A stretch of 59,984 nucleotides of DNA, the filler included, from Hausera hauseri (Eukaryota): the NCBI GenBank assembly GCA_046269625.1. It is 10 parts of 10 records of this genome, joined end to end, with 100 filler letters (N's around TTAATTAATTAA, not from the genome) between each part and the next. Parts side by side here need not be neighbours in the genome. Positions count along the whole stretch, not along the records: positions 23,614 to 27,886 come from JBJURY010664774.1; positions 27,987 to 32,356 come from JBJURY010613222.1; 8 more parts are not named here. One strand, given 5' to 3'. Below the pieces are notes generated by a model. That model was not told the origin of the DNA, did not search any database, and saw nothing but the letters and a program-made list of their open reading frames with translations. The translations under genes and the position numbers were made by a program. Shown here piece after piece: positions 13,821-42,400 of this stretch (its first letter is position 1; the number at the start of each line of letters is the position of its first letter).

Positions 13821-13846
13821 TTTTTCAAATCATATAACAATGAGCA

Positions 13847-18417: not shown

Positions 18418-18418
18418 A

Positions 18419-18790
18419 ATGAATTTTAGTATAGTACATGTAATGTATGCTATTTTTAGGCCTACACTACATTGTTGTACAAACAAGGCTCAAGCAACAA
18501 ATGATTATTTGACAAACCATCATCACAAACTGGCTTGGGAAGAATATAATACCCAGTTTTGCACAGATTGCCTTATGCGAGATATTGGGAATATGTGTGA
18601 CATAAATGAATCCACGTTTTATGTCAAAGATCATGATGATTGGCGGAAGAAGAATACATTTAATAGCATATTTCGAGAATTGCGAATATGTGCATATGAA
18701 TGTAACAAATTGGTAATTATACCAAAGAACAATACATGTATTTATCGTGAACATGGTTCACATTGTGCTTATAAAAAGTGTTTAGCGTAA
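18419..18790 (+). CDS. Small Cys/His-rich hypothetical protein convergent with PolB
   Basis: 123-aa ORF with CC, CxxC (twice) and HCxxxxC; starts at the contig edge; no family recognised. Confidence 0.45.
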   Translation: MNFSIVHVMYAIFRPTLHCCTNKAQATNDYLTNHHHKLAWEEYNTQFCTDCLMRDIGNMCDINESTFYVKDHDDWRKKNTFNSIFRELRICAYECNKLVIIPKNNTCIYREHGSHCAYKKCLA

Positions 18791-18959
18791 TGTCAAAGTT
18801 ATATTATTACTAAGTAAATGTGTTATTAAATTATTTTGTCTTAAACTATATAGTAGTTACTTAGTTTTACTTTGCCTTATCCTATATCACACATTACTTG
18901 ATCAAGAAGACAACACGGTATTTCGATACAACATTTATTAAGCAAAAAGAATAACAATA

Positions 18960-21900
18960 TTTACAATGCCACATATCTTTGAGGTTGTGTGTGGATTTCA
19001 TCTTCACGAATGTGCCTTTTTCATCGAACCAATCGAGGTTTTTCTTCCGCAGCGCAACCTTGGCAATCTGATGTTCCCGGGACTGGATCCTCTTCATCTC
19101 CCTGACGATGTAAGTTTGTTCCCACAACACTCTCATAATCTACAAAGCCTATGTCTTTAGCTAATGTGGCCCTTTGAACTCCCTTAGCCCGCTTCTTTAC
19201 CTAACCACTTACATTGATGGCGTACATTTTTGATCTCAACGCAACGAAACGGGTGGTGATCTGCCCATTCACCTTGTCTTTAAACTTCCCGAGGACCTTC
19301 TTGTTGACGGTTAAGTAATTTGGATGATCCTTCGGATAGTTCGAGGTATCTATATACTGCGCCAATTTTGCAAACTTTCAAAGACATCATCTGTGTGGAT
19401 CTGGTATATGAAACTGTCCGTGTCCATTTACATTAGGTGGAGCTCCTTTAATGTGGGACCATAATATTGTAATGAAAGTCATACGTCAAGGTCTTGGATA
19501 GATCCAATATGGGCATGCCCACATATATAGGCTTGTTAAACTCAAATGATGTCTTGAGCATATGAATGCTCACCAGGTTCTCTGTGTAGATTGTACTGCT
19601 GTGGAAGTTGGGCTTAGCGATAAGTATTTTTGCCCTCTTCCAGTTACATACCAGCTCGATGTTTATCCGGTTCCGGATGTTCTCCATAGTTTTGCCAAAG
19701 ACCGAGTTGTTATGCAGCTTGAATTGGTTCTTTACAAACTCGTTCTTGGCATTGGCCCTTAACTGAGTATTGAGGTCTATGTATGGATTCAGCCATTTGT
19801 ACTGGCTGAACGGCAGGGCCTGATGAATCCTGATTACTCGGAGTCCATTTTAGATGGCCTGTTGGAGATTTATGTAGTGGCCAACATACCTCTCCCTGTT
19901 TTCGAGGTGATATAGCAGCTTCTTATGCTTACCATTTGGCGTCCTCTTGCTCTTCGGGAGAAAAGGCAGCTGCTCATACCTTGTGTGGATGCTATGTGGG
20001 TATTCCACGTCCACCTCCCGTATGTAGCCCATATCTCCATTGGGATCAATACCTTTAGTATCCAAGACATGCGGCTGCTCCTCCCATTGAAAGTTATGAT
20101 AGGGCAATGGGTTGCTCATTGTCCATCCATACAGATTGTTGGAATCCAAGTATGATATATATAAGTACTTCTTGGATGGATCATAATCTACCATGTATTT
20201 TTTGTTGGCCTCGCCGTGCATGTGAATGGCCTGGCAGATTACGCCCTTGATGTCTCTCTCAATCATGAGGGCCACATTGTTATCCTTTAAAATCTGGAGC
20301 CTTATGCCGGTATAGCGCAGCATAGCTGCTCAACTCATTCCTGGAGTTGTAAAGAAATAAACTGGATCAAACTTGTGGCTTTTAAGGGTCACATCCCGGA
20401 AGCTTTAAAAGACATCAGTAAGCAACACCACATTTGTGAGGAGAAAGATATCACTGTATTCCCCTATTGCCCTGCACTGGAAGGTTTCCCATACTCTTTC
20501 GGCGTGCTCATAGTCAGAAACGCTAATATGACTGTATGAAAACCGACTATAGACGTCCGCTTTGTCCGGTAATGCATCTTCATCCAGTGCTCTCCATAAC
20601 GTTATATAGTCATAAAGGAACACTCCTTTCCGCTTCATCAGGTCAGATGTATCCGGGAAGAACCTCTTCGTCTCCTTGAGTTCATCACCTGGATGGTTCT
20701 TCACTAGGCCGTCGAGTGATGAGCTCATGAAGTAAAAGCTATCAATGAAGTAAAGTCTGATGCGGCCCATATGCTTCGTGAAGGTAAATTACTTCTCCTC
20801 ACTATTTGGAATCACATAAATGTTCCACTCAATATTACCCAATTCTCGAACAATGAGGTGGGAATCATATCCACTAAGATTGTGGAATATCACGGGAACA
20901 TATATGCATGTCTTGCAGCGTATGTTGCAATTGTTGTACACTGCGCCTCGGTATATGCTTGTAAAATGGCAGTGATCCTTGACTTTGTGATTGTCCCATG
21001 TGAGTGGCTTTCGGCATAAGTAGCATGTTGATGCATTGCGCCATTCACATTTTTCTTGCTGCGACATCACCATGTAGTCTTTATGTTGCTGCAACATGTT
21101 TTCATGTTTGTGGGCATACTGTTTTAGATGCTGCATAAAATGTGGTGCTGCATTTATACCCCTGTATAGGTAGGGTTCTTTGTCCAGTCCTTTGGCATAG
21201 ATGCAGTATGATGATAACTCATGGTACTGATATGCTGTAGTACTGCTTTGCTGTGGATTGGGACTGCAGCTGTGAACTGGACTGAGCATGGCCTCAAAGT
21301 CACAATATATGGCAATCGGCATCTTCTGTATCTTCTCAAACTCCTTGAATTCCACGTAATCCTCCTGGGGGAATTCTGCTCAGATACAATAGTTTGTATT
21401 GCAGTAGGTATTGTGCTCCACCAACTTTTCTACGGCTGTCTCCATTAAAATGGGTAAAGCCTCTTTCGCATATTTTCAGCCTTGATTTATGCTTGGATAT
21501 TTGCAATCCTATGAGGTGCTCAAAATTCTTGATCCAGAAGAAATTCCTCGTTTCTCCATCATCTAGCAGGAGCAGATTCCTATGATCCTCCAATTCCTCC
21601 TTGCACACATGAAAGGTATAAAATTTGTCCTCCTCCAATCCGAAGATGTTGATGGGAATTTTGTTCACGCTTTCAAATTTCACGACTCCATCTAGGCTCG
21701 GCTGGAATGAAATACAGCTGAAGTCTTATGTGTGCTGCACTTTGTCATATATCCAAACTCGGGAAGCATTATGTTCATCCTGGACTACTTTTGACAAAAT
21801 AGAATACATTAAACACATGCTGTCCTCATTATGGATATTGATGCATGCCTTTTTCTTAATTATTTATTCAGGAAGCGGTATGTAGGACCTACCTCTCATG

Positions 21901-22420
21901 GGAGAATACTTGTGCACATGCACAAGTAACCCCTTTATTGTAGTTAAAGTCCAACCGCTCTTCTTTTCCTGGCATTCCTCGGCTTCGCGGATGAGCCTTG
22001 CATAGTCCTCTGTAATGAAATCCTTAATGTTAAAGGATTTCAGTAGTGCCTTGTTCTTCGTTTTGAAGGCTCTATTATACAGCTCTCTTTTGATATTGGT
22101 GAATGTGGCTTCCAATTTGAAATTCACTTTCAGGGTCTTCAGGTCCAACAAGTTGTCCTGGAGAATTCCTGCTGCCTCCTCCTTTAAATATTCCAGGAAT
22201 TCATGGAGTAATACCTGCCCCACTTCTGCTATGAAGTATCGCCGCACTTTGCTCTTCAATGCAGATACATCAATTGGTCGCTGTCTTTGACTTTTTGTTG
22301 GAGCTGCTATGTCTGATGCGCCTGATGCGCCCCATGCGTCCGATGCGCGTTTTAGTCCCGCATCAGGCTGTACTGAAGGCTGTGGTACTGCAGGCCGTTG
22401 CACTGCAGGTTGTGCAACTG
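18960..22420 (-). pseudogene. Protein-primed family B DNA polymerase (Polinton/Maverick, adintovirus-like), copy A, frameshifted
   Basis: SGWTL..RGRSYIPLP; ExoI IYCDFEA; EndoVII-like CYLC..VKDHCHFTS.YRGA..NNCN; FHNLSGYDSHLI; FIDSFYFMSSSLDGLV; KGVFLYDY; YLDSNNLYG; KLHNNSVFGKTMENIRNR; KPIYVG; MDTDSF; many stops and frameshifts. Confidence 0.92.
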
Positions 22421-22421
22421 G

Positions 22422-22646
22422 CTAATGTTCATTAAAGATCATCTTCTTTGACTTTGATGCGAAGTCAGTCAAATGATGTTTGTGATCATAATAAACTGTA
22501 TGTATGCTCCACCACATACAGCCTGAAATCCTGGGCAGGTATAATAAATGATCGTGTTGAATTTGTATCCATAATAGCTCCTCATGGCATTGTGGCAATT
22601 CTGAGGGTTGTGCATTGCACATGTGCAATACACATATGAACTTCAT
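22422..22646 (-). pseudogene. Uncharacterised ~70-aa domain immediately upstream of PolB copy A
   Basis: YYDHKHHLTDFASKSKK matches FYNVHKQHLISFIKSK (22827-23036) and FYEFHKTHFCDFMAKS (~55860-55910). Confidence 0.45.
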
Positions 22647-22736
22647 ATTTGATTTTCCTTTGGCACGAAAGTTGTTATTGGCATATTGGTACTGAATATT
22701 TGTTTTTTAATGAACTTTTGTTTTAATGCATCAATT

Positions 22737-23036
22737 AAATTAAATACATGTCGGCTCCAACTTCGAATAGGTTTTTGACCATGGGGGATCGAATGCAATC
22801 ATCTGATTCTTCGAATAATGCATTCTTTATCGAGTTTTCGACTTGATGAATGAAATCAAGTGCTGTTTGTGGACATTGTAAAAGTCTTCATAATTGGTTT
22901 GGCACACAACCTCACATGTAGGTAATATATAATACTTACCCTGTTGTACATATGTACTGAAATACTTCTTCATAACACTGTGGTAATTTTCAGGCTCATG
23001 GATTTGAGCCAACCATTCGATATAAATCTTGCACAT
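22737..23036 (-). pseudogene. Stand-alone paralog of the PolB N-terminal domain
   Basis: MCKIYIEW..HEPENYH..MKKY..YYILPTC..VC..FYNVHKQH..; its 3' end (~22705-22828) is duplicated at ~23155-23276. Confidence 0.45.
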
Positions 23037-23513
23037 CTAAAAATGAACCAATTATTTGAGGAGCACAATTAAAAAACTCACCATTTGTTGAAGTGATTTT
23101 GGAAACAGTGAAACATATAGCCATATCATTATGTAGTGCCCCGATTATTGATTGGTTTTAATGCACTTTTGTTTTAATGCACCAATTAAATTAAATATAA
23201 TGCTGCGCCAAATTTAAGAATTTCGACCGTGGGGAATCGAATAACGTCATAAGAATCTTCGAATAATACATTTTTGACCGAATATTCGAGTTCGAATAGC
23301 TGATGCCATATTCCGATTCGGAATATATGACTTCCTATCCCGCCCCGCTTATATATTTATCGATTTCCGCTTCACTGTGCTTTAAATTCACATTTTGCTT
23401 AATTAGAAATATTGATTTCTTACCTATATAGTACATTTTCATGGAATAATTTTTATGTATAAGGCGGTTTTCGTATATGAGGATTTTTCAGGTTTTCGAA
23501 TTTCGAATATTTG

Positions 23514-23613: not shown

Positions 23614-23748
23614 ACGTTTATTCTCATTATATTAATTGCGATCTTTCAATTAGTTACCAAAAATTGTTATTCTAAGTGCCATAAAAATTCAGAATGGGAA
23701 TTAATGGAATTGGAAAACCATGTAGATCCGTATGATAAAATAACCTGA
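23614..23748 (+). pseudogene. C-terminal TM anchor and tail of an env-like protein (same family as 31100-32356)
   Basis: TFILIILIAIFQLVTKNCY versus TFVLIICLETFQLVTKNCQY at 32296-32356 (13/18 identical). Confidence 0.7.
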
Positions 23749-24303
23749 CAATTACAGACCAGGTTATTCTGTCACCAAACAATGAATTGGGTTTGGTTTA
23801 AAGCCATCCTTTGTTTTAAGATTAATATTTATGTTTTCTTTTTTAGATTGGTAAGTAGTCAGACTCAAATGAACTCGAGCCGGCTTAGCATCGACGAATT
23901 CTTGCAACGGTATGTAACCGTACGCATCCCGAACTAAAAAGCCATCTATCAACAAATCAATACAGAATTACAAGGGCGAAACTTCCTTCAGTACCCGAGA
24001 ATCGACGAAATACTAAACCACTTGAAAGGAACAACTGAAGAAACTATAGCCGTATATCTATACGCTTGGAAAGAGGCTAAAGATGCCAGAGCATACACTT
24101 TGAAACAGATCACCCAACACCAAGCGGATAAGGAACAGAGAATATATGTACATTTGGCCGACGGAGAATTCTATTATCGATTGAAGGACCAAAAATGGGA
24201 TTCGTTTCAAGGTAGACAAAGCCCGTTCAGCACATTTGTATTTAACAGTAGGAATTTCCACAATTGCTAGCTGGAATTCCGTATCGCAGTCTTACCTGTA
24301 AAG

Positions 24304-24945
24304 ATGATGGTCAAGAAAACTGAAGAGGAAACAATGCCCGTCTCATTGCCGCCCCTAGGATTTAGGCAAAGGCCCACTGAAAAAGAACAAGACGAGCATC
24401 TACATTCATTCAGACTAGTAACCGATGACAGGAATATTAGGATTGCCGCAATAAATTATGGAGAAGGAGAAGAAGGGAACTATATCCCAATTGAAATATC
24501 GATACGAGAAGAGAAAGGGGCCAAAATCTATTCAAAGATCATTAACCCAAGAAAGAAGGTACAAGAAACCTATGCCGAAGTGACTGGAATTAGAAGAGAA
24601 CAATTAATCCACGGAAAGGATTCCAAATTAGTGCAAGAGGAAGTAGCACAATATCTGTACGGATACGTCTTAGTGGGGTATCGAGTACAAAGAATGATAA
24701 AGAAATTAAACCTATCAGTAACTCACATAGCCAGAATAAGAGAGATAGAGACTCACCCAACTGTAATGGGACAAATGGAAATCAGGATCAAAGAGAAAAA
24801 GGACCACCTACCACCGACCGTGGAAGGCCGATTTAAGTTAATGGTAGAGGCCATGACTGGAGTGAATATAAAAATAAGCCGGCTGCTGACCGCTAGTCAG
24901 CGATCCCAGTACCTAACAGACATAAATGCCGGATTAAAATGTTAA
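24304..24945 (+). CDS. REX4/ISG20-like DEDDh 3'-5' exonuclease fold, probably catalytically inactive; part of an interrupted accessory ORF starting at ATG 23869
   Basis: EISIREEKGAKIYSKIINP..EVTGIRREQLIHGKDSKLVQEEVAQYLYGYVLVG aligns with the REX4 pattern RVSIVN..G..VYDKYVKP..AVSGIRPENL..G..VQKEVAEMLKGRILVGH; ExoI DCE reads NYG and the ExoII Asp is absent. Confidence 0.72.
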   Translation: MMVKKTEEETMPVSLPPLGFRQRPTEKEQDEHLHSFRLVTDDRNIRIAAINYGEGEEGNYIPIEISIREEKGAKIYSKIINPRKKVQETYAEVTGIRREQLIHGKDSKLVQEEVAQYLYGYVLVGYRVQRMIKKLNLSVTHIARIREIETHPTVMGQMEIRIKEKKDHLPPTVEGRFKLMVEAMTGVNIKISRLLTASQRSQYLTDINAGLKC

Positions 24946-25895
24946 AAGGTAATCCCAGACAGAACCTACGGAGCTTTCCTAAATTCGAAGGAGTTAGTAC
25001 ACGATATAGGAAACATTTCCGTTCATATTCTCCACCAAGGAATGTCGAGATCATGCCAAAGTGGAACTATCAGATAACGATACAAGGGTTAAAACCCGAG
25101 AAAATGGAAGAAAAAATGTCCACGAACGAGAAGCCTAGCACTAATTTTGCAGCCAAGGCAACCGAAAATTGTAGCAAATTTAAGGTACCAGAGATTCCTA
25201 AAAAGCGCATTAAAAAGGAAGAAAAGAACCAAGGCGACAACAAGGAGAAAATGATAAAGAAAAATTTCCGTCTTCGATTATTTATTCAAGAAAAAAATAA
25301 AGGAGAGGAAAAGGGACCGGAGGAAAAACATCATTTGGACAAAAAAGATTCAAGACTTAAGTCAACCGACAAGCCAAGAATACAAGACGAAGGATCAGCG
25401 AAATCAACTGCACAATCCTATATTGAGAAGTCTACAAAGATACCGAACAAACGGAAGGAGCAGATAACGGGAATAAATATATTACGTAAGAAGAACTCTA
25501 TGGATGACATACATTATGCCACTGCGGAGGATTATCCTAGAATGCCAGTAGCGACAGAGTACTACAGTAAACAAAAGATTAAGGAGGCGATGTTTTTCAT
25601 CAGATTAATGCCCGCAAGACAGGTATACGAGAACACTTACGTCTGGGAGAATCCTAAGGTCGGAAAATACATTGCACCGATATTTCAGTCGAAAAGAAAT
25701 GGCAAGTTTCTAGTTCCCGTGGATAAATCTGTAAAATTGCTACTCAAGAAACAATATCACGAATACCGATCGACTGGTGAAGTTCCCGATTTAGATCGAG
25801 ATACTATAAGCGATTGGACTCTAATACCTGTAGGATGCGATCCTAACAAAAGTTCCATAAATCCGAAGCAAAAAAGAATATATGCCTATTTATAG
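24939..25895 (+). CDS. Lys-rich linker plus unknown globular domain, in frame with the downstream RING
   Basis: 318-aa ORF; same frame as 25911-26360, separated by one TAG. Confidence 0.5.
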   Translation: MLKGNPRQNLRSFPKFEGVSTRYRKHFRSYSPPRNVEIMPKWNYQITIQGLKPEKMEEKMSTNEKPSTNFAAKATENCSKFKVPEIPKKRIKKEEKNQGDNKEKMIKKNFRLRLFIQEKNKGEEKGPEEKHHLDKKDSRLKSTDKPRIQDEGSAKSTAQSYIEKSTKIPNKRKEQITGINILRKKNSMDDIHYATAEDYPRMPVATEYYSKQKIKEAMFFIRLMPARQVYENTYVWENPKVGKYIAPIFQSKRNGKFLVPVDKSVKLLLKKQYHEYRSTGEVPDLDRDTISDWTLIPVGCDPNKSSINPKQKRIYAYL

Positions 25896-25910
25896 CAGGA
25901 TAAGGAAGGA

Positions 25911-26360
25911 TTGATAATAGAACCTATCGAGATTATGATAAGGGTTGACTTGGACGACGAAAATTGTGAGAAAGAAAAGAATGAATGCCCGGTATGCGAG
26001 ACAAATTTGAAACAAGGACATGTAGTACTAAATTACCCTGATTGCCGACACAAATATTGCAGAGACTGCTCAGAGAAATGGACATTGGATGATGGAAAAA
26101 CCACATGTCCCGTATGCAGAGCTGAGGCCACCGACTTGAAATACTACTCAAATGGTAGTTATACCAGAGTGGTTAGAATAAAACCCTATCATAGTTACGA
26201 ATTGGAAACAAATCCAAGAGAAACCCAGCCGAGTACCAGTTCTGGACCCAGTTTGAGACAACGTATGGAACTATTACGTTCACCCCATTCTCACGGCACC
26301 TTTCCTGACGCAAAGGGCAATCCGAGAATGCCGCTCAAGGAGGAGAAATGTTGTAAATAG
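25911..26360 (+). CDS. C3HC4 RING finger protein (putative E3 ligase)
   Basis: CPVC-x15-CRH-KYCRDC-SEKW-x8-CPVCR. Confidence 0.85.
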   Translation: MIIEPIEIMIRVDLDDENCEKEKNECPVCETNLKQGHVVLNYPDCRHKYCRDCSEKWTLDDGKTTCPVCRAEATDLKYYSNGSYTRVVRIKPYHSYELETNPRETQPSTSSGPSLRQRMELLRSPHSHGTFPDAKGNPRMPLKEEKCCK

Positions 26361-27886
26361 CCGCAAACGGAACCGACAGTGGACTAACGCTGTAAATAAT
26401 TGATTAGAATTTAAATAAATTATGCATTATATCATTGTAATTAGACTGCGAAGTTGCTGTATTAGAAATATATTATTGTAGAACTAGCCGTAAAAAGAAT
26501 GAATTATATATAGCCAAAAAGGAAATTTAATTCTAAAGTAATGTATAGAATAAAGAAAAATGGAATGTCAAATTAATAAATCATTGCACCTGGAGATATA
26601 TAAGGAGAGAAGATTGGCAGAAAGTTGAAGTTGAAATTGTTTGAGAACGTTACGAAAATTTGCTTTAGACCAGCGAATCGTATTGCTGAATTAGCCTGAG
26701 ACGTCAGAATTGTTCTTACATTGGAAACGCTGACTATTGATTTCGTGAAAAACTTTCTTATAAAGACTTTATTCGTGATCATCGATATCTGAGACTTGGT
26801 AATTGTTATTCAATATATTTTTGTTTGTATAAACTTTTCTCAGTTTTTCTTCGCCCCTTAAGTGTGATTTGACGACATTAAGGTTAATTTTGTTACTTAA
26901 CTTATATAGTTAAGAGAGGGCATTAATAATTATCGCACAGGACCACAAGAAATTACCCGCATAGTAATTAAAAATCGTTAAGGTACATTTTGTCTATTCG
27001 ATAACGGTAGACCTTACGTGCATTAAGGTACTCAAATTTCAAGTGCAATTATTTTTATATAGAGGGAGTTGAATAAGGGCCACCCCAATATATAACATGT
27101 TGTTCCATATTACCTTTATTTATAGTTGTTATATACATCTATATTTTCCCCACCATTAAGGCAGAAGGACTAAAAATGCAATAAAAAATTTAAAAAATAA
27201 ATTGAAAAAGTGTATTTTTCAAAGACCATGTGGAGTACATTGACAACACAAATTACAACAATCAAACGGATTACAACATTGGCATTGGATAGAGCAGAAA
27301 CATTTAAGGCAGCAGCAAAATACAGGACAAGAAACACAGCAGTATATAGCACAAATGAGTCCGAATATGATGAGAAACATGGCGCCTAAAATACGAAATT
27401 TATTTCATAAAAAGTTTCGAAAAGAATACCGGATTGTAGAAAAATTAGTAAAAAATTAATAATAATCAAAATTGTTGATGTGATGCTTACGTCGGATGAA
27501 ACAACTTCGGTGACGTTTGAAAAAACTTGAACGCATTGACCGGCCGTACTTGTTATTGTGTCAATATCCATGTTGACGAGTATGGTCTAGTAGAATTTGT
27601 GGAGCTATTTATTCAATGCATTGCATCATTTGATAAAATTGAGGAAATAGTCATATTAAAATTATTTGTCATTGATATTGAACTCCTTGCAAAATTCTGG
27701 TTCCATTCCAGGGAACATCACTATCAAAATGTAATGAATTAAAATTTTTCCAACGAATCCGTAATAACTCAACTGGGGCTTTAAAATGTGACAGTTTTTC
27801 ACACTTGTTCAAATTTCTCCCACTATGTTTAGAAATTTTAAACTTTGACGAAATTTGACGAAATATTCGATTTATGGTTCAGTTGT

Positions 27887-27986
27887 NNNNNNNNNNNNNN
27901 NNNNNNNNNNNNNNNNNNNNNNNNNNNNNNTTAATTAATTAANNNNNNNNNNNNNNNNNNNNNNNNNNNNNNNNNNNNNNNNNNNN
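27887..27986. other. Artificial contig spacer
   Basis: Same structure. Confidence 0.98.
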
Positions 27987-30900
27987 TCCGGAGAAGTATG
28001 GATCCCGGTCGATGAAAACATTCCGCCTAGAACGGAATTGTTAATATTTGCACAGATTTATCAAGACGGCAATATACCAGTATACCTTGAACCAAAAGAA
28101 ACGTTAAACCCGAATATAATATTGAGCAATAAATTAACCCTGGTAGCATTCGGTCGAATACCTGTAAGAATAGTGAACAATGCTCAGACTCCAGTGAAGT
28201 TATATGCTAACACGACTCTAGGACATACTTATAAAGTATCAGCAATAACGGTTGAAGAGAAACCGTATAAGTATGCTGAATTTCCACCACACGTCGATAC
28301 GAAGTTTTCACCAGAAGCTTATTGCCAGTTGTACGAATTGTTATGTCGATATAAATCGATCATTGCGAAAAACGAAGAAGACATAGGCAGAGCAAAAACG
28401 TTAAAATTAACTATACCACTTAAGAAAAAACCTGGTTCCAATGATGAAATCAATCTAGAGGAACAGAAAATGCCAAAATGATATCCGCCGCCGCATTCCC
28501 TAAGGCCGGAAATAACCAAGGAGGTTGAATGTATGTTAAAGGCTGATATAATTCGACAAAGTTTTAGATCTTGGTATTCACCTATTCTAATGGTCAAAAA
28601 GAAAGGTACAACGAAACATCGATTTTGTATCGATTATAGAGCATTAAATACTCTCATGATAAAGGATTCTTTGCCCTTACCATCTGTGAAAGAGGCCCTA
28701 GATAGGCTGTCAGGAGCAAAATGGTTTACCACTCTGGACTTACAATCTGGATATTGGCGAGTAGAAGGTGAAGATGAAGATCGTTACAAAACAATGTTTA
28801 AAACCAGCCATATTTACCAGGATGACAAATAAAATGCTAATAGGACTCAAACATGCATTTGCGTACTTAGATGACGTAACTATCGCATCGAAAGACAAAA
28901 AGGAACATCTGACGGACATTGAGGACACACTTGTGAGATTAGAACATACTGGGTTGAAACTAAACCCGAAGAAATGCAAATGGGCTCAGAATTTCTTATC
29001 CTACCTTGGCCATATAGTTGAAGAGAAAGGATCGAAGCCAGACAAATCATTGTTGAACAAATTTTCAGACTGCATGGAACCCTAGAACCAAAAAAAACAA
29101 AGACATTGGTTAGGCTTATGCAGGTACGCCGCTTACGTACCGAACAACTCAAAAATGAATGCGCCAATATACCGATTATTAAAAAAGGGTACAAAATGGA
29201 GATGCACCGACTTTGAACGAAAGGCGTTCGATGAAGTGAATATACAAATCAGAGAACCAGTACTGAGATACCCTGACTTTAGTTTACCGTTTATTATTAA
29301 AACAGATGCAAGTAAAGAAGGTATCGGATATGAAATGTCACAAAAAAGCGAGGACGAAGAACTCGGACATCCAATAACTTATGGGGGACGTTCCCTAAAG
29401 AAATCTGAGAAAAACTATTCAATGACAGAATTAGAAACGTTAGCAGTAAAAGAAGCCTTGAAACATTTGAACGTCTATGTATATGGAGAGAGGATAATAA
29501 TAGTTACAGACCACAAAGCTGTTACAACTTTAAAGAGACGAGCAAATAACCCTACTCGTAGGTTAAATAGATGGATCGAAGAAATCTCAAGGTATAATAT
29601 TAAATTCAAATATAAGCCTGGTGCGAAGCATGTTGGTGCGGATGCGTTGTCAAGACTGAAGAAAAGAACAAGTGCTATAATGACAATGAAGAAAAACCAG
29701 CTCGAAGAGTTAATAAACCGATAACGAACTTTAGCGTTAGATGAAGCAATTACAATTACGACCGAGCAAAAGAGGGATCAAGTTATCCAACAAATCATTG
29801 AATATGCTGAAGCAAACGTAATGCCAAAATGACACCAATTAATAAAACATTTACAACGACATGGACATAAATATCGTGTCTACGAGAGAAAAAATAATGA
29901 GAAAGTACTGTATTACGAACGAAAAGGAAGGAAGTTAGTATTTATACCCAAAAACTTACGAACAGAGGTTTTAATGGTCGAGCACGATTCATATTTGGCT
30001 TGACACATGTCCTGAAAGAAAACGTTAAATAGGACGCTAAACAAATTCTATTGGCCTAGTACATATATATTGATGTGAAAATTGGGTAAGCGCTTACAAA
30101 GTATATGCAAACAAGCAATGCGGAATTACATAGCAGAGCTGAAGCCGATCACTGTACCAGCCAGGCCGATGCAAGCTATATCAATGAACATCGTAGGACC
30201 GCTACCCACGTCGCATAGAAACAACAGATACATACTAACATACGTCGACCATTTAACTCACTTCGTGAAGTTAGTGGCATTATATGATCGAAAAGCAGAA
30301 GCCTTAACCGAAGCTGTGGTAAGAAAATTTTTTTGTAGATACGGACCTCCATATCAGATACTCACTGGTCAATAGAAAAATTTTACCAGTGAATTATTCG
30401 ATAAGATCACAAAAATATTCAAAATTGAAAGAATGACTACAACAGCCTACCATCCTTAATGTAACAGAATGGTTGAACGAATGAATGCTACCGTTAAACG
30501 GATATTATCAACCGTAGTCGCAAAAGATCAAAAGGATTGGGACAAATTCCTAGAAGGCATGCAATTTTCCATAAATACGACGCCTCATCCCGCGACATAG
30601 TTCACACCATTTTTTATGATGTTTGGACGAGAAGCAATATTACTTACGTTCTTAGGAATGATTCAGTATGAAGTAAACTTCGAAGAGTTAGAACCGAATT
30701 TTGTAGAAGTCCTACAAATTAGATTGCAAAAATGTTGGGATATAGCGAAGATATTATCCCAAGAATATCAAGAAGGATTCAAAAGACAATTTGACCAAAA
30801 GGCAAAACCGCACGATTTAAGAAACGGAGATTGAGTTTACGTGCACTATCACGTAGATAAGAAAGGTACATTGTTAAAACTCACGCGCATTAGAAGAGGA

Positions 30901-31000
30901 CCTTACGAAGTTGTCAGAACAACCCCCACTACCGTTTATGTCAATAAAAATGGAAAGGAAGAGGTCATATCAATACAGCGAGTCGTGAAAACGGAAACAA
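27987..31000 (+). mobile_element. Ty3/gypsy pol pseudogene (RT, RNase H, integrase, GPY/F)
   Basis: SPILMVKKK..RFCIDYRALN, FTTLDLQSGYW, AYLDD, KLNPKKC, YLGH; TDASKEGIG, NYSMTELETLAV, TDHKA, RLNRW, ADALSR; integrase IVGPLP, YVDHLT, TTAYHP, VERMN; GPYEVV; stops and frameshifts. Confidence 0.95.
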
Positions 31001-31099
31001 GGCCAGATAAGCGAAACCAATTTTATTTAAGGGACGTGAAAACGAACCAAAAACCGAATTGCGGAAAAGTCAAAACCTCGTCTATAGTTACCAGGCCCA

Positions 31100-32356
31100 T
31101 ATCGTACATACCGATAGTCTTAGCACTATCACTTATAGGTTCATATATTCCGGAAACCAAGGGTCAAGGAGGATTGATTCAAGGACTAAACAAATGGATG
31201 AAGCATGAATTGATAAGAATAAAAAGGAACGACTTAAGCACCTTAGACTGTTTCAAAGTTCAAAGTAGAGATCAAAGACGAAATTGTGTGCTATTTAAGA
31301 CGGACGGAACCGTTAGAAAATAAGTAAAATATCAAGTAGTTCTATGGAACGCGAATAAACAAGTAACGAGCCATTGTGATCTTCCTTGTGGGTCCCAGAA
31401 GGATGTTGTGTCATAAATTATGGGAACATTTATATCTTCGCAATACGAATGTACTACAAAAACTACGAAAGCACACAAGGAACGATAAGACCGCATGGAA
31501 AATTAGTAATAACCACCAGAGTACGGTTCAATGCAACAGAAATCAGTGGCATAGTACAGTCAACCGATACAATAAAATGGGTGTTGAATGAAAACATAAT
31601 TGTTATTTCAAAAAATAAGTAAAACAAATGTATCCAAATAGATACAAAATGGAAATTGCCAAGCCACCAAGACATCTCAACCCAGTTTACCAAAATAAAA
31701 GAGTTAAGTCCAATTCCCAATTATTGTAGAGTAAAGAACACAGATCTTAGGATCTGTTGTAAAATCTCAAAAGGCTATGAATATAGGATTCATTTTGACC
31801 TTTACGGAACTCAGGAAGATATTATCAGGACAATAGAATCTGGAAAATTGCGATCGAAACGACGACGACGAGACAGACTGTTCCATTAAGCACCACTCTC
31901 ATATTTACTACAACAAAGAAATTATAAAAAGAAAATTACTTAAGATTCCTGTAAAATTTTGGGTACAGAAACATAAAATAGTATTTTCGGTAGAAGAAAA
32001 GCGCCAATATGACGTCGAAATAAATTGCCGTATGATGTATAGACACATAAAAACAACCCTACTGAAATACACATACCACACAGAATGCAACTCATTAATA
32101 TCAAAGACCGACTATATAATACAAATATATGCAAAATACCTACAGAGTCAAACCTTCACAATACAAACTCTCTAGGAAATACAAGTAGCATCACATGCAA
32201 ACAAAGACATGAGACATGATACAACTATAGATATAGTTACTAGAAAACCCAAAGACCTGACTACTTTGCCTATTATAATGATTGCAAACCTGTCAACATT
32301 CGTACTTATAATATGTCTTGAGACTTTTCAATTAGTCACAAAAAATTGTCAGTATA
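31100..32356 (+). pseudogene. Env-like region in frame after integrase: signal-like segment, furin-type sites, Cys-rich domains, C-terminal TM
   Basis: YIPIVLALSLIGSYIPETKG is in the same ORF as GPYEVV; RIKR (31216) and RSKRRRR (31851); TM PIIMIANLSTFVLIICLETF. Confidence 0.6.
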
Positions 32357-33432: not shown

Positions 33433-36400
33433 TCAGTACGAGAATGCAGAGACAAGATATTCATCGGTCTTATCGGAATGGAGCATATGATGTCTGATCA
33501 ACGGCAACGAATCGACGCGGTCCCCGGAAAACGTCTTAATAGAACTTACCGAATCCAGTGTTCTATTGGACTGGGATTGATCGGTGGCATTACTGTTGAG
33601 ATACTGCAGAGCTTTGACGATTACTTTCAACGTATCTTTGCTCGAGCTTGGGCATGTGTCGAGAACTTGAATAATTTTCTCTAAAGACTCGCTATGTACA
33701 CTTTGTAAATTGCGATCCATTTTCTTCAGAACTTCAATGCAAAGCAAATTGAGATCGTTAGTGTAGTTTTCATTAAGATTAGTACAGGTGAACGGACTCT
33801 CATCTGTCGAGAATGTTGTCGTTGTATTGGTCGTTTCATTGTAGGGAATTAGAGGTTCACTCACCCAACGTTTCTCCACATGTTCATATCCTGTGAAATT
33901 ATCACCAGCCGACGTTGTTTGAACATACGTTGAACTCTTACTCAGCACACTTGTTCGTGATGCGTTACTCAACACTGTCATTACAGATGTGGGACAGCGG
34001 CAGGTGGACACGGATTTGTCTGACTCATCTAACGGACTTGTTGCAATTAACGGTGGTTTATGTTTGGCAGAACTTTTGCATTTCTTAATCAGACCCATAA
34101 TTCGACCTTTTAATTCCATTAGGAACACAGCCCGCTGATCGTTTTGTTTAGTTCGTTGGTGATTGTCGTTTGATGATTTGCGATGCTTGAATGATTTGAA
34201 CAATCTTCCTAATCGGCTTTTCTTTTTTGGCAATCGTTTTAGTGAAATCGGCAGCTGGACCGTGGCTTTCTCGGGTGCCTCAAGAACAATTCGGTGGGGT
34301 CGTGAGAAGCAGAAAGAATTGTCGTTTTGAGTTTGAATCGTTGCTACTGCCTCCATACTGTTTGAGAATTCTTGCAACTGGCAATTTTCGAATTGATCAA
34401 ATAGCAACGGGAGCAGTCGGATCAGCCCGTGTTTTACTTGGCGAGCTTGAGAATCGGTGAGGAATAAAATTCCATATTTGCTAAGTGCATACTGTTTGTT
34501 TTTGACTGGACAACCATATGGGAATTCCGATAGGGGTATGATCTTCACCATAAGGTGCTCTGCTTGTTTGTTGGATGCTGAATTGTTAAGGCAATTGTTT
34601 CCGTGGTTTTCTATGAATATGGGCATGTTCTGAGTAGACTCAGAAATTGGAGAACATCGTTGGGAAAAAAATCCTTGATTGTTCTTTGATTGCCATTTTG
34701 ACGATTTGCTCCTTACTCTATGCAATGATTCGGTGAATGGATTCGAGATAGATGGTCTTGTATCCATTGATGAATCGATTTTCCTAGTTTCTCTATCCTT
34801 ACTAGCGGAAAGTCGTATATCATTTTCTGCTTCATTGAATTCTAGTTCATCGTCTCTCTTAGACAAAAACACTATGTCATTTACTTCGTCATCTTGTCTC
34901 TTATCTGCTGCTTTTTCTTCAACTTTGTCAGAGTGGGAAGCTAACCCCAAACTCTGTCGTTTCACAGAAGTAACATAAGCATCCATATCCGACGGTGTTC
35001 GGTAGTTTCTTCGTAATTCTGATTCAGTTTGATCAGCAGTACGAACTTTAACCTTTTTACTAGACTTTCTGGAAGATCCGCTTTTGCTAGAATGAATTTT
35101 CACAGAACAGGGTTCCTTTTCTTTGGATGTATTACTTATGATTGCACTTTCGGCTTTTGGAATATCATCTTCAAAACCATCAGAAGCATTACTTACGAAC
35201 GATTCGGTATTTCTTGGTATTACTGAAAACTTCCTTCGTCTATCAATAAAGCTTTTATTATGCGGCTTCTTCGGATTTTTCACCGCTCCGGATTGTAATG
35301 AAAACGTGCCAACTGGGTCCGCTATATCATCTTGGTTATCGTCAAGATCGATTAAGTTTTGACTGCCACTTACACTTCTTACTGATCTGCTTTCTTGGAT
35401 TTTATGTTGACTCTTTCTACCCTCCGATAGGGAATGACGATCTTTCACAGGTGGGACAGAACTGCGTTCATTGGGCAAATCAAACGGACTAGGACCTGCT
35501 TGGTAGGTTAAATCCTTCATTATTAGGCTGGCTCTGTTATCGGCAGTTGTTCGTGAAGTAACAGATGGATGTTTAGTATCATCAAATACATTCAGACCGA
35601 TCATTTGTGGCTCCTGTGGAATACTTTTTCTACTTTCATGAACCGATCCGCGGGGTTCTTCTTCTAAAAGAAAATTATGTAGTTCGGGCCCGTTTGTCCT
35701 CATGCTACCCACGTTTTTAGTTTCATTGATTGATTTTCTACTTTCTTCCACAAGAAACTGATCTAATCCCTGCTCGTTAGTTCTTATGCTGGTAACGTTT
35801 ATAATTTCATTGATTGATTGCCTTTGTTCTCCTGGTACAAACGGATCTGGTTCAAACCCGCTCGGTCTTAAACTACCCATTTTTCTTAGTTCGTCCATCG
35901 ACTTTCTAGTTTCTTCGGAAATTAATTGATCTGACCCACGCCCACTAGTTCGTATACTACCCATTTTTCTTAGTTCATCCAGTGATTTTCGAGATTCCTG
36001 TGAAATCAATTGATCCAATGCTTGAGCACTAGTTCTCACACTGCCCCCTGGTCTCGTTTCGTCTATAACAACTGGTTCTAATCCATACCCGCTAGTTCTT
36101 GTACTACTCGATTTTCGTTCTTCTGGGGCGAGATTCTGGAGCTGATCAAATTCGATTTGCCTACTTTGCCTCACTTTACTTTCAGCAATTGAATGTCGAA
36201 CGTCTTGTGATGTTTCTCTTGCTAAACGACTTATCTTATTCGCAATAGAACGCTGGTCACTTTGCCGCACATCGCCAATTCGACTGTTGAGAATCGATTG
36301 TTTTTCGTAAGCATTTTGGTCTTCTGACGCGATAATATTATGCCTATCTAATTCGACTTTTCTTTGACTCATTTTACTTTCAACTGTTGAATGTCGAATG

Positions 36401-39400
36401 TCATGGATACCGGATAAAGCCTTTTCTCTAACTTTGATACTCTCCACCGAATGATGATCCTTTCTATTACTTTGTCGCACATCTCCAATTATACTACCAG
36501 AAATTGAGTGATTTTCACTGTTGTGCCTTTCTAACTCCATCTGTCCGCGACTCAATTTATGTTCAGCCATTGAATGTCGAATGTCACGCATACTAGGCGA
36601 ATAAGGCTGTTCCCTGGCGATACTTTGAACTGAACGCGGTTCTTGTCGATCACTGTATCTCACTCCACTACCTCTACTGTCAGCCATCGAGCGCCTTATA
36701 CTCGATTGATCGGAGTCATTGTAACTCGATAGAATATACCTCATACTTGCAATTGCTTGCTCGCCTTCTTTCACGTTTTCTAATATTTCGTCAACTATTC
36801 GATCAGCTAAAAATCTCATACTCTCCGTAACAACTGGTGAAGGAGAAGGAGAAGGAGATTTACTCGTCTGGCTAGTTCTCAGACTGCCGACATTATGTCC
36901 CGGACTCGTGTTGTTTCTCATTGACATGCTCGACTTTTTCTGACTCGTCCTAATATCAGCCATCGAATGGCGAACGTCATGTAGACTAGGAGATTTAAAT
37001 CGCTCTCCAGATAAACTTTGACGTATTTCACTGATGTGTCTATTGTCATCAGAATTTTCACTCACATTCATATCAGGTGAAGCCGACCAGTCTCGACTTG
37101 AACTATGACTTATTTTTAATGTACTTCTTGATTTCAATGGTCTAATATCAACAGCCGAATCTCTCATTACACCACCCTTATTATGTGACATAGATCGATT
37201 ACTAGCAATACTCTTCCTGCTAGGTGACATCGATCGTTCTCGAGATAAACTACTCTTCTTACTCCCGATAGAACGCTGACTTTGTCTACTGCTTTGCCGC
37301 ATTTCACTCATTATTCTGTCGGCATTTGACGTCCTGGTGCTATGTATACTAGGGGGAATACTACCAACTGAGTGGCTAGCTCTCAAACTTGTGGCAGGTC
37401 TCTCGTCTAGGGTTTCGACAATTTCATTTAGAATAGAGTCAGCTACTGATTGAAAACTCGCTTCGGCAGCAGGGGTAGCAGAGTGGATACTTATACGTTG
37501 ACTTCCTCTATGAAGATTTGGATCAATATTTGGTTCTATTAAATCTTCATTCATATGAGACAATCTGCTGTCGGCCATCGAATGTTGAATACTTCCGCCC
37601 ATTGATTTCTGTTCATGTCGACTGCTTCGTCGAACTCCCGATTTTCTACTTCCTTGTGAACTTATAGAAATCGATCTGCGATCGAGAGATCTTTCACTCT
37701 TTCTATGGCTTTTACTGCTATCAACCTTCGACTGTCTAACATCAGATGTAATTGATCTAAGCTCACTAGCTTTTCTACTTCCACTTCGATGACTCAATCT
37801 ACTGTCGGCCATCGACTGTCTAACTTCAGGTGAAATTGATCTAAGCTCACTAGCTTTTCTACTTCCACTTCGATGACTCACTCTGCTGTCGGCCATTGAC
37901 TGTCTAACTTCAGGTGAAATTGATCTATGCTCACTAGCTTTTCTACTTCCACTTCGATGACTTACTCTGCTGTCGGTCATGGAATGCCTAAATTCAGGTG
38001 AAATTGATCTATGCTCACTTGATTTTCTACTTCCACTTCGTTGACTTCTCCTACTCTCGGCATTTGAATGTCGAATGTCATGTAAACTGGGGAATGAACT
38101 TTGCTCTCTAGTTATCATACTTCTCACACTTGCCTCGGATGTATGATCTGGTCTAACGCTTTGTTTAAATCCACTTGATCTTCTCTCTGCTGCTGATATT
38201 CTATTTCGATCTACATCTGAGATCACTTCCGATGTTCGATCACTTGCCCTAATACTTTGTAAAACTTGTTCTTCTGGTATGTTTCTCTGACTATTCATTG
38301 ATCGTTTACTTCTCTGACTCATTCTGGAAGACTTCTCTCTAGACATACTATGTTTCATACTTCCGATTGATCGTTGATCTTGCATCAAACTTTTTCGCAT
38401 TCCACTTGATCTTCTCTGAGATGCTGATCTTCGGCTTCCTTCTCCATCTGACGAATGTAGTTCGTTAGCTTGAAAACCTTCCTGTGAAATCTGACTCCGA
38501 CGCCCTGATGAACGACCTTTCATTTGGCTCATCCTTTGACTTGGAGACATGGACATATCTATGGCTGAGCCACCTTTTATGCTTTCCACCGCTTCATGAA
38601 CCTGACTCATACTTTGTCGTACTTCATCTAACATTTGATCCGCCATAGAGTGCATTGTGCCTTCTGCTCCCGTGGATATTGATCTACTTAGTCTTGGTTC
38701 AGTAGGTGCTGTGGACTTGCGTAAAGAAAAATTTCTTTTTGAACTCTTTTTACTATCTGACATTGAATTTAAGCTATGTGATGCAGATCTATCTAGCACT
38801 GCACTACTTCTCATACTACCAATGGATTGTGGATATTGCGGTTTTTCACTATTTCTTCTATTAGCTGACGATTTTCGACTTGCACGAGAACTTGGTGATG
38901 ACGAATGATCTCTTCTACTCCCACTAGATCTTGTACTTCCACCAATGCGCTGACTCTGTCTCATGCTCTGTCGCATTGATGCATCTTTTTTCTCGCTCAT
39001 CTTTTTATCGGCCATAGAATGTCGCATTTCATGAATACTCTGGACTGTAGATCCATCTCTTGCCACACTGCTTCTACTTGAAATCTTTCCACTAACAACT
39101 CTGTTTCCTAACGACTTTTTACTACTTCGAACACTAGGTGAAGTTGATCGATCTCTTTTGAGTTCACTGGATCTCACGCTCACTAGAAATGGTTCTTGTT
39201 TACCCAAACTGCGCCGTGATGACATTCCCGATTTCCTATGGCTCATTTTACTATCATGAATGCTGGGGGAGTGCTCTCTCGATTCACTACCTCTGATACT
39301 TCCCATAACCTGTTCAACATGGCTCAAGCTTTGTCTTAATTGACTTCCTATGGATTGTTTAACGCTGTCTTGAGCAGGTGATGTTGATCTATCTCTTCTG

Positions 39401-42400
39401 CTTCCGGTTGATTTTCTATTTTGACTCATACTTTCTCTCATATTACTACTTCGTCTGTCTGGGGTCGATCTTCTACTTTCAGAAGTACCCGATCTTTTAC
39501 TTTCACGCATAGTTGATACTTTTGAATGACGACTTGATCTCATACTTCCTGCGCCTCCTTGGTCATGAATTTGGCTTTGTCGAACCGACGTATTCACTGT
39601 TCTACTGCTTGGTCTTTTACTTTCGGCGTGTGAGCTCAACACGCTTGGGCGATATTCTTCAAATGGCACTTCCTGAGTAGTTTCAAAGACTTGCTCTGCT
39701 GGAGCTATAATTCGTGATTCAACCACCGATCGTCTAACTTCATGCCCACTTCCACTTTGCCTCACTGATGAACGCAAGCTCTGCTCTCTTACGCTATGTC
39801 CTGATGTTCTTTGCAAGACACTCGAACCTTCTCTGGGTTTATTACTGATTCGTGAACTTTTTCTAGAATGCTGAAATGAACCCATATCATCAATAACGCT
39901 GGGAACTGCTTCTACTTCGTCTGATGCTTCTATTATCATGTTACTACTAACAGATCTTCTCTCAACTTCAACAACTCCTCCATCGCTTGTTCTCTGACCA
40001 GAAAGTACAATGTGTTCTTCTTGTATGCCTACTGAGACTTTTGAATCACTTTCATGATCAACGTCTTTATCATGTCCATCATACAGATCATCAAAATTCT
40101 CTTCTTCATCCGAACTTTCGCTACTAACAGATCTTATAGTTGTTTCGATTAAACTTTTTTTAATGTAAGTCTCGCCGTCTTCTGTTTCCACGGATTCCTC
40201 AGAATATTCTGTATGGGTAATTTCAATTTCCTCTGCTTCGGGTTCACTTTTAGCGCTTTGCCTCACACTTTCTTTCACGGAGGGATCCCGAGTTACAAGG
40301 AATTGTGGAACACAGCAATCAGTGGAACATGCAACATCAAAACATTGTAGTGAATGGGCATTAGGTGCCAGTATACCTGGATGACATAATCTTTGGCAAC
40401 ATGTTATTTGAGGACATGGTTTTGGTACTGGACACTCTCGTTGACTACTACCACGACCTGTAACTAAGCTCACCAACGGTCGCTTAACTTCGTTTTTCAA
40501 TTCCGATATTCTAATGGTTTCAACAGGTCTTGAATCATCATTGTCACAAAATCGGTTGTCGTAGATAATAATATGACTGTCCTTTGGACAACTTCGTCTA
40601 GCAGATAACCTCAAGTCACCATCGGATCTGCGTATAGAAACCACGTCTTCACCTGGACCAGTACCTACACCGGATTCCATTCTATATTTAACTGGTTCAT
40701 CCTCGTCATAATATTCCTCATCCATATTATCAACTTCATCATACTGTTGTTGAAATTCATAAACTTGTTTTTTACTGCTTGGAGGTCTCGCGTACTCTTC
40801 ATAATCGAACATCTCTGTAGTTTCCAACTGTTCATTAGGTGTTAAACTTGATTTTCGAATTGATGCTATTTTCCTGTCTGTACACTCTGCGCTACTGCTT
40901 ATTTCAGATACCGGGATGTCCAAATCATGGTTTGAGTGGTAGCTTAAATGAGAAGTTTGGCTTCCACCACGTTTGTAAATGGAATTAACTTGAGTGCTTT
41001 TCCTTTGTGATGATCTAACAGATGAGTTTGGGGTGCCATGTTCAATGATTGATGGATTATCATTTTCTGATTGCTGTATATACGAGTGGCATTCTACTTC
41101 TGCATCAATCATCGGTGATTCAACATAAGTTTGACAACATACGTTACATGGAGGAGGAGACTCTCCTCCACAACATGGAGGCAGTCCTGTGGTTGATAGA
41201 TTTCTACATCCTGGAACTGGGCACATTTGAAGGGGTACTTGAAAGTTCATGCCGCAAGGTTGACTATTACAGTATGGATCACTGATCAATCTAGGTACAC
41301 TGTCAAACATTACCCTTCCGTCAATACATTGAGTTTGACATCCACAGCTTTCAAAGGATACTGATTGTGCAACACTGGGACGACAACAATCACAACCAGT
41401 GACATGAGGCATATTTTCTTGAATTTGAACGCATTGTACATTTTGGGGACTGCACGCAACGGGAAGAGTTGACACGGTACCAGGACAGCAAGGAACGTGG
41501 ACGTTTGGAACTGTTTCATGGACTTGAACACGGCATACTCCTCCTGTGCAGCATGGAGATGGAACACTTTGTATAGTTTCTTGAATTTGAACATGAGGTA
41601 CATTAACTGTGCAACAAGGAGATGGAACACTTTGGACTGTCTCTTGAATTTGTACACGAGAAACATTTCCTGTACAACAAGGAGATGGAACACTTTGGAC
41701 GGTTTCTTGAATTTGAACACGAGAAACATTTCCTGTAGAACAAGGAGATGGAACAGTTTGGACAGTCTCTTGAATTTGAACACGAGAAACATTTCCTGTA
41801 AAACAAGGAGATGGAACACTTTGGACAGTTTCTTGAATGGCAAAACGAGAAACATTACCAACAGAACAAGGGGATGGGGAAGTTGGCAAAATTTCTTTAA
41901 TTTGAACATGAGGCATATTTCCGGCACAATAAGGAGATTGGGGACTTGGTACCATTTCTTGAATTTGAACACGCGAAACATTTCCAGTATAACAGGGTGC
42001 TGATACATTTGGTACAATTTCTTGGATTTGAATACGAGATAGAGTTTCTGGACAGCAAGGAGCTTGAAACTTTGGTAAATCGTCGTGAAACTGAACACGA
42101 GGAACATTTCTTGAACACGATGACACTTGAACATTGGGCACAAATTCTGGAATTAGAATTCGAGGCATATTTCCTGTACAACATGGAGCATAAGTATTGG
42201 GTACAGTTTCTTGGATTTTAACATGTGAAACGCTTCCTATAGAGCATTGTGGTTGGACGTTTGCTACTACTTCTTCAAATTGCATATGAGGTAAATATCC
42301 TGCAAAACAAGGAGGCTGAATATTTGACACAACTTCTTGAATTTGCATATGAGGTAAATTTCCTGGACAACAAGGAGTCTGAACGTTTGATATGACTTCT

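Follow-up and report, generated by a model that had tools for sequence, protein, structure and literature searches.

Do two separate contigs of the Hausera hauseri genome represent the middle and the 3' end of the same kind of retrotransposon, and what did the multidomain gene at that 3' end encode? The question is raised by a stretch of 59,984 nucleotides from assembly GCA_046269625.1 (below, the window). Because the window consists of ten contigs joined via spacers, contig A (positions 23614-27886, JBJURY010664774.1) and contig B (27987-32356, JBJURY010613222.1), which are neighbours in record order, are separate records. Judged by its domains, contig B holds a gypsy pol in decay with the frame of a membrane protein behind it, and contig A carries the remains of an accessory gene with an exonuclease-like fold and a RING finger. 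Our preferred explanation, to which we assign a probability of about 0.58, is a gypsy lineage in which the last gene codes for a RING protein fused to a pseudo-nuclease and to a predicted dioxygenase fold.

The accessory gene was formerly a single open reading frame

An initial annotation of the window had described one interrupted open reading frame (ORF) at 23869-26360, with three stops and one frameshift, and this description was confirmed. The number of breaks was 4, as compared to a mean of 28 and a minimum of 20 in 200 null resamplings. A phmmer scan across 1.84 billion representative proteins returned 45 hits, of which two were strong, P0121 (870 residues, expect value E = 2e-75) and the partial protein P0122 (333 residues, E = 2e-63), each known from a single ENA contig (16.2 and 12.4 kb, respectively). 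P0121 is one uninterrupted ORF, and therefore intron-free, that is collinear with the window gene (residues 43-412 with 40% identity and residues 421-842 with 36% identity) and open across all four places where the window gene is broken. This natural relative settles, by sequence comparison, that the accessory gene was formerly a single ORF, as the annotation had proposed to check. Introns as the cause of the stops were rejected, given that only weak splice-site pairs were found and that P0121 is open at all four places.

The three close members of the family (the window gene, P0121 and P0122) are mutually 40-50% identical. The individual domains of the window gene are 40-60% identical to P0121 and the linker 27% (Table 1), and this difference suggests that the protein remained under selection once its catalytic residues were gone (see below). 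In word-index protein searches none of 705 candidates was related to the exonuclease piece and none of 3430 to the C-terminal half, P0121 with its 870 residues being outside the length range of the latter search. The ESM Atlas gave no usable hit for P0121, and for the more distant relative P0126 only RNase_T clusters below 0.9.

A pseudo-nuclease, a predicted dioxygenase fold and a RING finger in one protein

The encoded protein consists of an N-terminal domain (N-domain), the exonuclease fold, a Lys-rich linker, a third domain and the RING finger, which is the order given by the initial annotation; its first domain, left without a name there, is now predicted to have a 2-oxoglutarate (2OG) dioxygenase fold. 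From the window sequence alone the exonuclease fold was weak (PF00929, E = 0.0086, below cut-off), and a single-sequence fold of this piece was unusable, with a predicted local distance difference test score (pLDDT) of 35.5. Through the relatives, and as judged from a family profile and a structural model, the assignment to the DEDDh DnaQ-like fold is firm: the profile matched ISG20L2 (Table 1) and the AlphaFold model of P0121 matched ISG20 (1wlj) with a Z score of 19.9 and a root-mean-square deviation (rmsd) of 2.0 for 160 aligned residues. The catalytic D, E, D, H and D are missing from both the window copy and P0121; in the partial P0122, the first motif is missing as well. This shows that the catalytic loss is older than the decay of the window copy. 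On these alignments, the missing nuclease residues are a family trait of the close members, and the annotation of a dead REX4/ISG20-like fold was thus correct.

Five more distant relatives (P0126, P0166, P0143, P0165 and P0135), known from short contigs (ENA, JGI, Logan), have the N-domain in common with the close members and form an unnamed family with N-domain and DEDDh fold. A profile built from four distant members scored the three close N-domains at 12-23 bits, above 500 of 500 shuffles for each and above 40 of 40 control regions. Catalytic D-E-E-H-D is kept in P0126, P0166, P0143 and P0165 and lost in P0135; given that distant relatives sharing the N-domain keep these residues, the dead form probably arose from an active one. 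No RING was found by Pfam scan in P0126, P0135, P0143 and P0165. Several tandem REX4-like exonuclease domains, several of them degenerate, were observed in P0123, P0124 and P0136 (730-800 residues), P0124 being from the spittlebug Clastoptera arizonana.

In the AlphaFold model of P0121 the N-domain (residues 56-205) had pLDDT values of mostly 70-88. Residues 51-209 of the model matched Ofd2 (5yl6; Z score 9.6, rmsd 3.7, 134 aligned) and a prolyl 4-hydroxylase (2jij; Z score 9.4, rmsd 3.8, 144 aligned), and these were the only 2 of 50 rows that spanned the whole domain. Foldseek returned AusE, PHD2, ALKBH7 and Ofd2 (E = 2e-4 to 1e-3), and its lists also hold viral AlkB-like or 2OG proteins, among them several plant-virus replicases which we take to carry AlkB domains. 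In the alignment, the HxD/E motif was missing in 6 of 7 rows and is not conserved, one His column was kept in 5/7 and one Arg column in 7/7. We therefore predict from the model a 2OG dioxygenase (AlkB/prolyl-hydroxylase) fold without iron ligands, which is likely inactive as an enzyme since there is no conserved HxD/E.

For the third domain, located before the RING, no significant match was found in Pfam, PHROG or PDB, and in the C-terminal half of the P0121 model, which includes this domain, pLDDT was below 50. A decayed reverse transcriptase (MMLV RT, E = 0.6) was considered for it and rejected with a profile score at null level, in that 388 of 723 scored shuffles (1000 were made) reached its score with a gypsy reverse transcriptase profile built from 62 of 120 such sequences. 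The RING finger, described as a C3HC4 type in the annotation and complete in its ligand positions (Table 1), was above the Pfam cut-offs in both the window gene and P0121, matched the RNF38 and RLIM RINGs in PDB and was aligned to RNF38. We think there is a good chance, about three in four, that it is active as an E3 ligase.

Contig A resembles the tail of a long terminal repeat element

The flanks of the accessory gene have features of a long terminal repeat (LTR) element. An acceptor-like pyrimidine tract with AG lies 23 bases upstream of the ATG, and at the position of the acceptor P0122 reads FFFRLVS and P0121 has a similar Phe-rich run. Within 23847-23856, a donor-like GTAAGT begins 4 bases past the AG, where P0122 keeps the translated RLVS; a four-base exon or a regulated site are possible explanations of this arrangement. 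At the other end, a purine run (at least 11 purines with at least 4 G) followed by TGT was unique in contig A on both strands, with 6 such sites in the window, and this junction lies 12 bases before the end of the ORF. Past the junction the strand skew falls from 0.30 to 0.03-0.06, and no coding signal was seen beyond 26360. For the LTR that would start at the junction, candidate inverted ends were found at 27097 (8/10) and at 27248-27278 (8-9/10).

The plus strand of the accessory ORF has 39% A and an AT skew of 0.30. Corresponding values were 38% and 0.23 for the pol of contig B, 39% and 0.22 for a contig of the window that resembles the planarian element Burro (see below), and 32% and 0.03 for PDS5 at 47989-50117, which served as the host-gene control for base composition and skew. 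The LTR-element setting named in the annotation is thus consistent with both the purine tract with TGT at the ORF end and the A-rich plus strand, and contig A is likely the tail of such an element.

Contig B carries a gypsy pol and a membrane-protein frame

In contig B the order reverse transcriptase, RNase H and integrase, with an RNase H of the gypsy type and a GPY motif at 30898, identifies a gypsy pol, in agreement with the annotation. The closest pol relatives were at most 45% identical among the 120 listed. When the reverse transcriptase and RNase H were placed in a phylogeny, as had been suggested, they fell among gypsy pols on a long branch, with 35-38% identity to the best of the relatives used (102 of the 120), in a tree that included no named clade. 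The spacer region before the reverse transcriptase was matched by 3 of the 120 pol proteins; by eye only, it looks dUTPase-like.

The frame beyond the integrase was formerly coding, as it has 5 breaks compared to a null mean of 16, a number as low as 5 being reached in none of 200 null resamplings. It starts with a signal-like stretch in phase with pol (31084-31140, hydropathy 1.7), continues with RIKR at 31216 and a Cys-rich middle, and ends with a hydrophobic anchor (32263-32340, hydropathy 2.3). The signal-like stretch, the basic site and the C-terminal anchor are broad features only. No hydrophobic fusion peptide was seen by eye after RIKR, and Pfam, PHROG and PDB gave no match to env families when the broken frame was searched as three pieces of 116-173 residues. 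As there was no match to an env family, a structure or a pol relative, the annotated label of an env-like region stands for position and topology only.

A probable link between the two contigs through a peptide at their ends

A peptide in membrane-anchor position is shared by the two contigs, encoded right at the start of contig A and within the final 61 bases of contig B. In all, 13/18 residues and 44/61 bases are identical (B 32296-32356 vs A 23614-23674), and 13 codons differ, 6 of these synonymously. None of 2000 shuffles reached the score of 69 (null maximum 46), and the match ranked first among 190 contig-end pairs, the runner-up having a score of 44. Going by base composition, the exact string FQLVTKNC should occur 4e-6 times in the window. 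The peptide match that the annotation had started from is thus beyond chance. Given an identity of 72%, it is not an assembly overlap of the two contigs. A search with the peptide pattern returned 44 metagenome matches, none of which was otherwise similar to contig A or B.

From this match and the domain content of the two contigs, we read contig A as the likely 3' end and contig B as the likely middle of two diverged dead copies in one gypsy lineage, and we consider it probable that contig A belongs to the lineage from which the pol of contig B comes. The proposal that the two contigs piece together one element holds in so far as the peptide bridges them; no single molecule with pol and accessory gene was present in the contexts scanned.

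Table 1. Coordinates of the features in contigs A and B, as positions in the window.
Feature	Position	Strand	Remarks
Contig A
Shared peptide, contig A copy, plus short cytoplasmic-type tail until stop	23614..23748	+
Splice-acceptor-like pyrimidine tract and AG, putative	23834..23846	+	score 11.5, next 8.0 (between 23630 and 26400)
Accessory gene, one former ORF, about 830 codons	23869..26360	+	stops at 23935, 24268 and 25893; frameshift near 24945
N-domain, predicted 2OG-Fe(II) dioxygenase fold	23884..24330	+	40% identical to P0121 56-205
ISG20/REX4-like DEDDh fold without catalytic residues	24427..24939	+	family profile to ISG20L2, E = 1e-14; 42% identical to P0121
Lys-rich, poorly conserved linker	24951..25523	+	27% identical to P0121; at most 9 Lys per 30 residues
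Conserved domain, fold not assigned	25524..25961	+	48% identical to P0121 599-742
C3HC4 RING finger, eight of eight ligand positions	25977..26132	+	PF13639 E = 7e-9, PF00097 E = 1e-7; 60% identical to P0121
Polypurine-tract-like run	26337..26348	+	then TGT (26349-26351)
Likely 3' LTR	26349..27097	+	start TGTTGTA; TATATAA at 26597; end unsettled
Contig B
Pol spacer before reverse transcriptase (contig B begins inside)	27987..28478	+	tblastn to gypsy pol P0116, E = 1e-9
Reverse transcriptase, frameshifted	28482..29082	+	PF00078 E = 5e-11 and 1e-13 in two frames; YLDD motif
Gypsy-type RNase H	29086..29721	+	PF17917 E = 2e-30, PF17919 E = 5e-26
Integrase, broken	29960..30950	+	PF00665 E = 9e-5, below cut-off; tblastn to gypsy pol through 30950
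Post-integrase frame, broken, type I membrane protein	31084..32356	+	5 breaks vs null mean 16
Shared peptide, contig B copy	32296..32349	+	13/18 identical to start of contig A

Proposed element and alternative explanations

In the proposed element, an LTR and gag (outside the window) would come first, pol would then continue in phase into a type I membrane protein, and the splice acceptor would be followed by the accessory gene, the purine tract and the other LTR. Its size is estimated at roughly 10 kb, with the gag side unseen, on the basis of the 4.4 kb of contig B, a part of about 3.5 kb in contig A and the usual gag and 5' LTR. The large element of the initial annotation is therefore not what we propose, as nothing seen was unusually large. 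A spliced subgenomic RNA would give rise to the accessory protein, in which the basic linker and both pseudo-enzyme domains may contact RNA, its ends or a host protein bound to RNA, and the RING would recruit an E2 enzyme and ubiquitinate whatever the protein holds. The most likely reading of the accessory protein is an LTR-retrotransposon ubiquitin ligase whose two pseudo-enzyme modules serve in binding. Its target would most probably be a host factor of silencing or RNA decay, and the view that the target is a host defence factor is held tentatively, at somewhat less than even odds. Doubtful, when all its parts are taken jointly, is the fullest version, a gypsy element with complex-retrovirus layout in which pol is fused to a membrane protein of an unmatched env class and a spliced accessory gene overlaps the 3' LTR and encodes an RNA-guided degrader. 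Such a degrader would combine captured and disarmed dioxygenase/demethylase and ISG20-like nuclease folds with its own RING and could strip host silencing factors off the element RNA.

Several observations weigh against the preferred explanation. No molecule was seen on which the accessory gene accompanies pol; 61 bases with 72% identity connect the two, and context scans for such linkage in viral contigs, prokaryote genomes and phage records were empty or gave chance hits. By eye, the contigs of the listed pol relatives differ in length from those of P0121 and P0122. P0121, P0122 and the distant relatives are known as proteins without DNA context, and among the 16 of 45 hits scanned a RING was present in P0121 only. 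The post-integrase frame was matched by 0 of 120 pol relatives in tblastn. No second LTR copy was found in the window, the end of the LTR is unsettled, and the purine-tract and other LTR-tail tests were chosen after seeing the sequence. Finally, the dioxygenase fold comes from one AlphaFold model (P0121, from a 21-row alignment) with 6-7% identity, and the N-domain sequence profile found no dioxygenase in PDB or Pfam; for these reasons the fold is given as a prediction.

The alternatives that we considered concern either the role of the protein or the origin of the gene. With the same architecture, the accessory protein could serve the element's own life cycle, through RNA or particle binding, protection or localisation, with the RING controlling turnover of the protein itself or of Gag. 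Such a role is in line with the basic linker, with a data set that names no target, with the retained RNA binding of inactive DEDD derivatives (PMC5408684) and with the 3'-end processing or auxiliary replication that has been proposed for the DEDD cargo of rotifer elements (PMC5408684). A processing role is unlikely, however, because both enzyme folds are without catalytic residues, and that the RING is the best kept part (60%) would be expected for a conserved interface with host E2 enzymes. We regard this explanation as rather unlikely, yet the most serious of those considered.

Less probable still is that contig A derives from a different LTR element (another gypsy lineage, BEL/Pao or non-autonomous), with the membrane-protein gene as all it has in common with the element of contig B; the accessory gene and the pol of contig B would then never have been together. 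Extra ORFs do move among unrelated rotifer retroelements (PMC5408684), the copies of the shared peptide are only 72% alike across 61 bases, and contig B stops before accessory sequence could appear; on the other hand, errantivirus env genes have been reported to diverge together with pol and only rarely to recombine (PMC13524379), and the two contigs are alike in base composition. That the exonuclease-RING gene instead belongs to the host, as a gene or retrocopy, or was carried by a non-LTR or DNA element, and lies by chance behind a scrap of a membrane-protein gene, appears improbable. Host proteins of the PML type combine a DEDDh domain, which may be active or dead, with a RING-containing module (PMC10123124), KolobokD DNA transposons carry DEDDh nucleases (PMC9587614), and the relatives are known only as proteins. 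Against this origin, P0121 has no introns and there are no strong splice pairs at the stops in the window, the window copy has decayed with 4 breaks, no named host orthologue with the N-domain was present among 18 clusters looked up, and the purine tract/TGT junction occurs together with a retroelement-like skew.

Comparison with known cargo-bearing elements

The precedents named in the annotation, planarian gypsy elements with extra ORFs (PMC6431247) and bdelloid rotifer elements with captured DEDD exonucleases (PMC5408684), both exist. The rotifer LTR retrotransposons Juno and Vesta have a DEDDy exonuclease as ORF3, reportedly expressed from spliced messages (PMC5408684), and thus, like the window gene, a DnaQ-superfamily fold as cargo 3' of pol; the DEDD-to-DEED change noted for them (PMC5408684) is also seen in P0126, P0143 and P0165. 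Their ORF3 is, however, RNase D-like (DEDDy), intact and in the place of env, and the word RING occurs 0 times in the available text (PMC5408684), whereas the window gene is of the DEDDh ISG20/REX4-like type, catalytically bare, preceded by a membrane-protein gene and part of one chain with three further domains. Given that the rotifer cargo is of the RNase D type and intact, it is an analogy and not the same gene.

The planarian gypsy element Burro contains RING-type (AIR1 motif), BIR, BCL2 and ubiquitin-like motifs, and Burro/GYPSM1 thereby resembles the element proposed here in being a gypsy with ubiquitin-system cargo (PMC6431247). Burro is more than 30 kb in size and has its cargo and a mononegavirus-like env inside a polyprotein of 4,900-5,100 residues between gag and protease (PMC6431247), whereas in the window the membrane protein comes after the integrase and the cargo has a gene of its own in last place. 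No exonuclease or dioxygenase is listed for Burro in the available part of that report (PMC6431247). Membership of contigs A and B in Burro was rejected on layout, with the membrane frame being after the integrase.

Another contig of the window (9882-13846) does look like a piece of Burro. Its minus strand carries, in a row, pieces (12130-12591, 11540-12160, 10880-11509 and 10034-10561, one of them Lys-rich) with a ubiquitin-like (PF00240, E = 1.5e-4), a Bcl-2-like (PF00452, E = 1.4e-3) and a Monjiviricetes fusion-like match (PF24664, E = 1.6e-3), all below the Pfam cut-offs. This order of ubiquitin, BCL2 and env is that of Burro (PMC6431247). PF24664 hits this contig and not contig B, and by eye the env-like piece is similar to Smed_errantivirus_1. 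Within the window, this contig is the one sign pointing to a flatworm-like host, and the host is on that basis likely of the kind in which Burro occurs.

In orchids (Phalaenopsis), Ty3/gypsy elements have a separate second ORF with an AlkB domain that is an active m6A (N6-methyladenosine) demethylase, so that they have, as is predicted for the window gene, a 2OG dioxygenase domain in a separate gypsy ORF (PMC9289625). These elements belong to the plant Tat/Ogre lineage (PMC9289625), whereas the fold in the window is predicted, without conserved HxD/E, not placeable as AlkB versus prolyl-hydroxylase, and fused to the nuclease and the RING. Errantiviruses resemble contig B in that a gypsy pol is followed by a Cys-rich protein with signal peptide and C-terminal anchor (PMC13524379), but homology to their F-type or gB-type proteins was not detected in the broken contig B frame, which was searched in pieces. 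In flatworms, the errantivirus survey describes only gag-env-pol elements with gB-type env, and neither exonuclease nor RING appears in its available text (PMC13524379). PML/TRIM19, like the window gene, has a RING-containing module and a DEDDh domain in one chain, with a nuclease that is dead in amniotes, and acts on retrotransposons; it differs in being a restriction factor of vertebrate hosts, in its TREX1-like domain and in the reversed domain order (PMC10123124), and no homology is implied.

In favour of the preferred explanation, a precedent as LTR-element cargo thus exists for each module, namely nuclease, dioxygenase and RING. The combination described here is a variant of already known cargo-bearing gypsy elements, and what is new is the predicted dioxygenase fold of the N-domain and the nuclease loss as a family trait. 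Literature searches returned no paper on a cargo combination of AlkB, DEDD and RING; a prior entry in a repeat database (Repbase, planarian library) is possible. Extra genes of LTR retrotransposons are known, their jobs are mostly open, and the published cases considered are single active enzymes. A four-domain protein that was kept after both folds had lost catalysis, with the RING as its best conserved part, suggests a function in binding and ubiquitination, and the natural uninterrupted P0121 makes this function assayable. Should a protein of the PIWI pathway or of RNA decay prove to be the target, an invertebrate retrotransposon would possess a self-contained ligase for counter-defence. 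Among the relatives, the active ones are the likely ancestral state and provide a route for tracing how the modules were assembled.

Other features of the window

Two decayed copies of another sequence, at 18418-23513 and 55647-59984, are 76% alike across 3.4 kb and have a zinc motif like that of endonuclease VII (PF02945, E = 4e-4) and the look of a Polinton/adintovirus-type DNA polymerase B, the polymerase label having been given by eye. On the minus strand at 33436-45849 there is an open frame of 4138 codons, rich in Ser, Arg, Cys and Pro and with internal repeats. The host-gene control at 47989-50117 is coding sequence of the cohesin regulator PDS5 (PF20168, E = 3e-28) and is open over long stretches. 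A pair of related C-rich open frames, at 1717-2754 and 50304-51230, have 47-63% identity in tblastx and no Pfam match, and are likely another repeat family.

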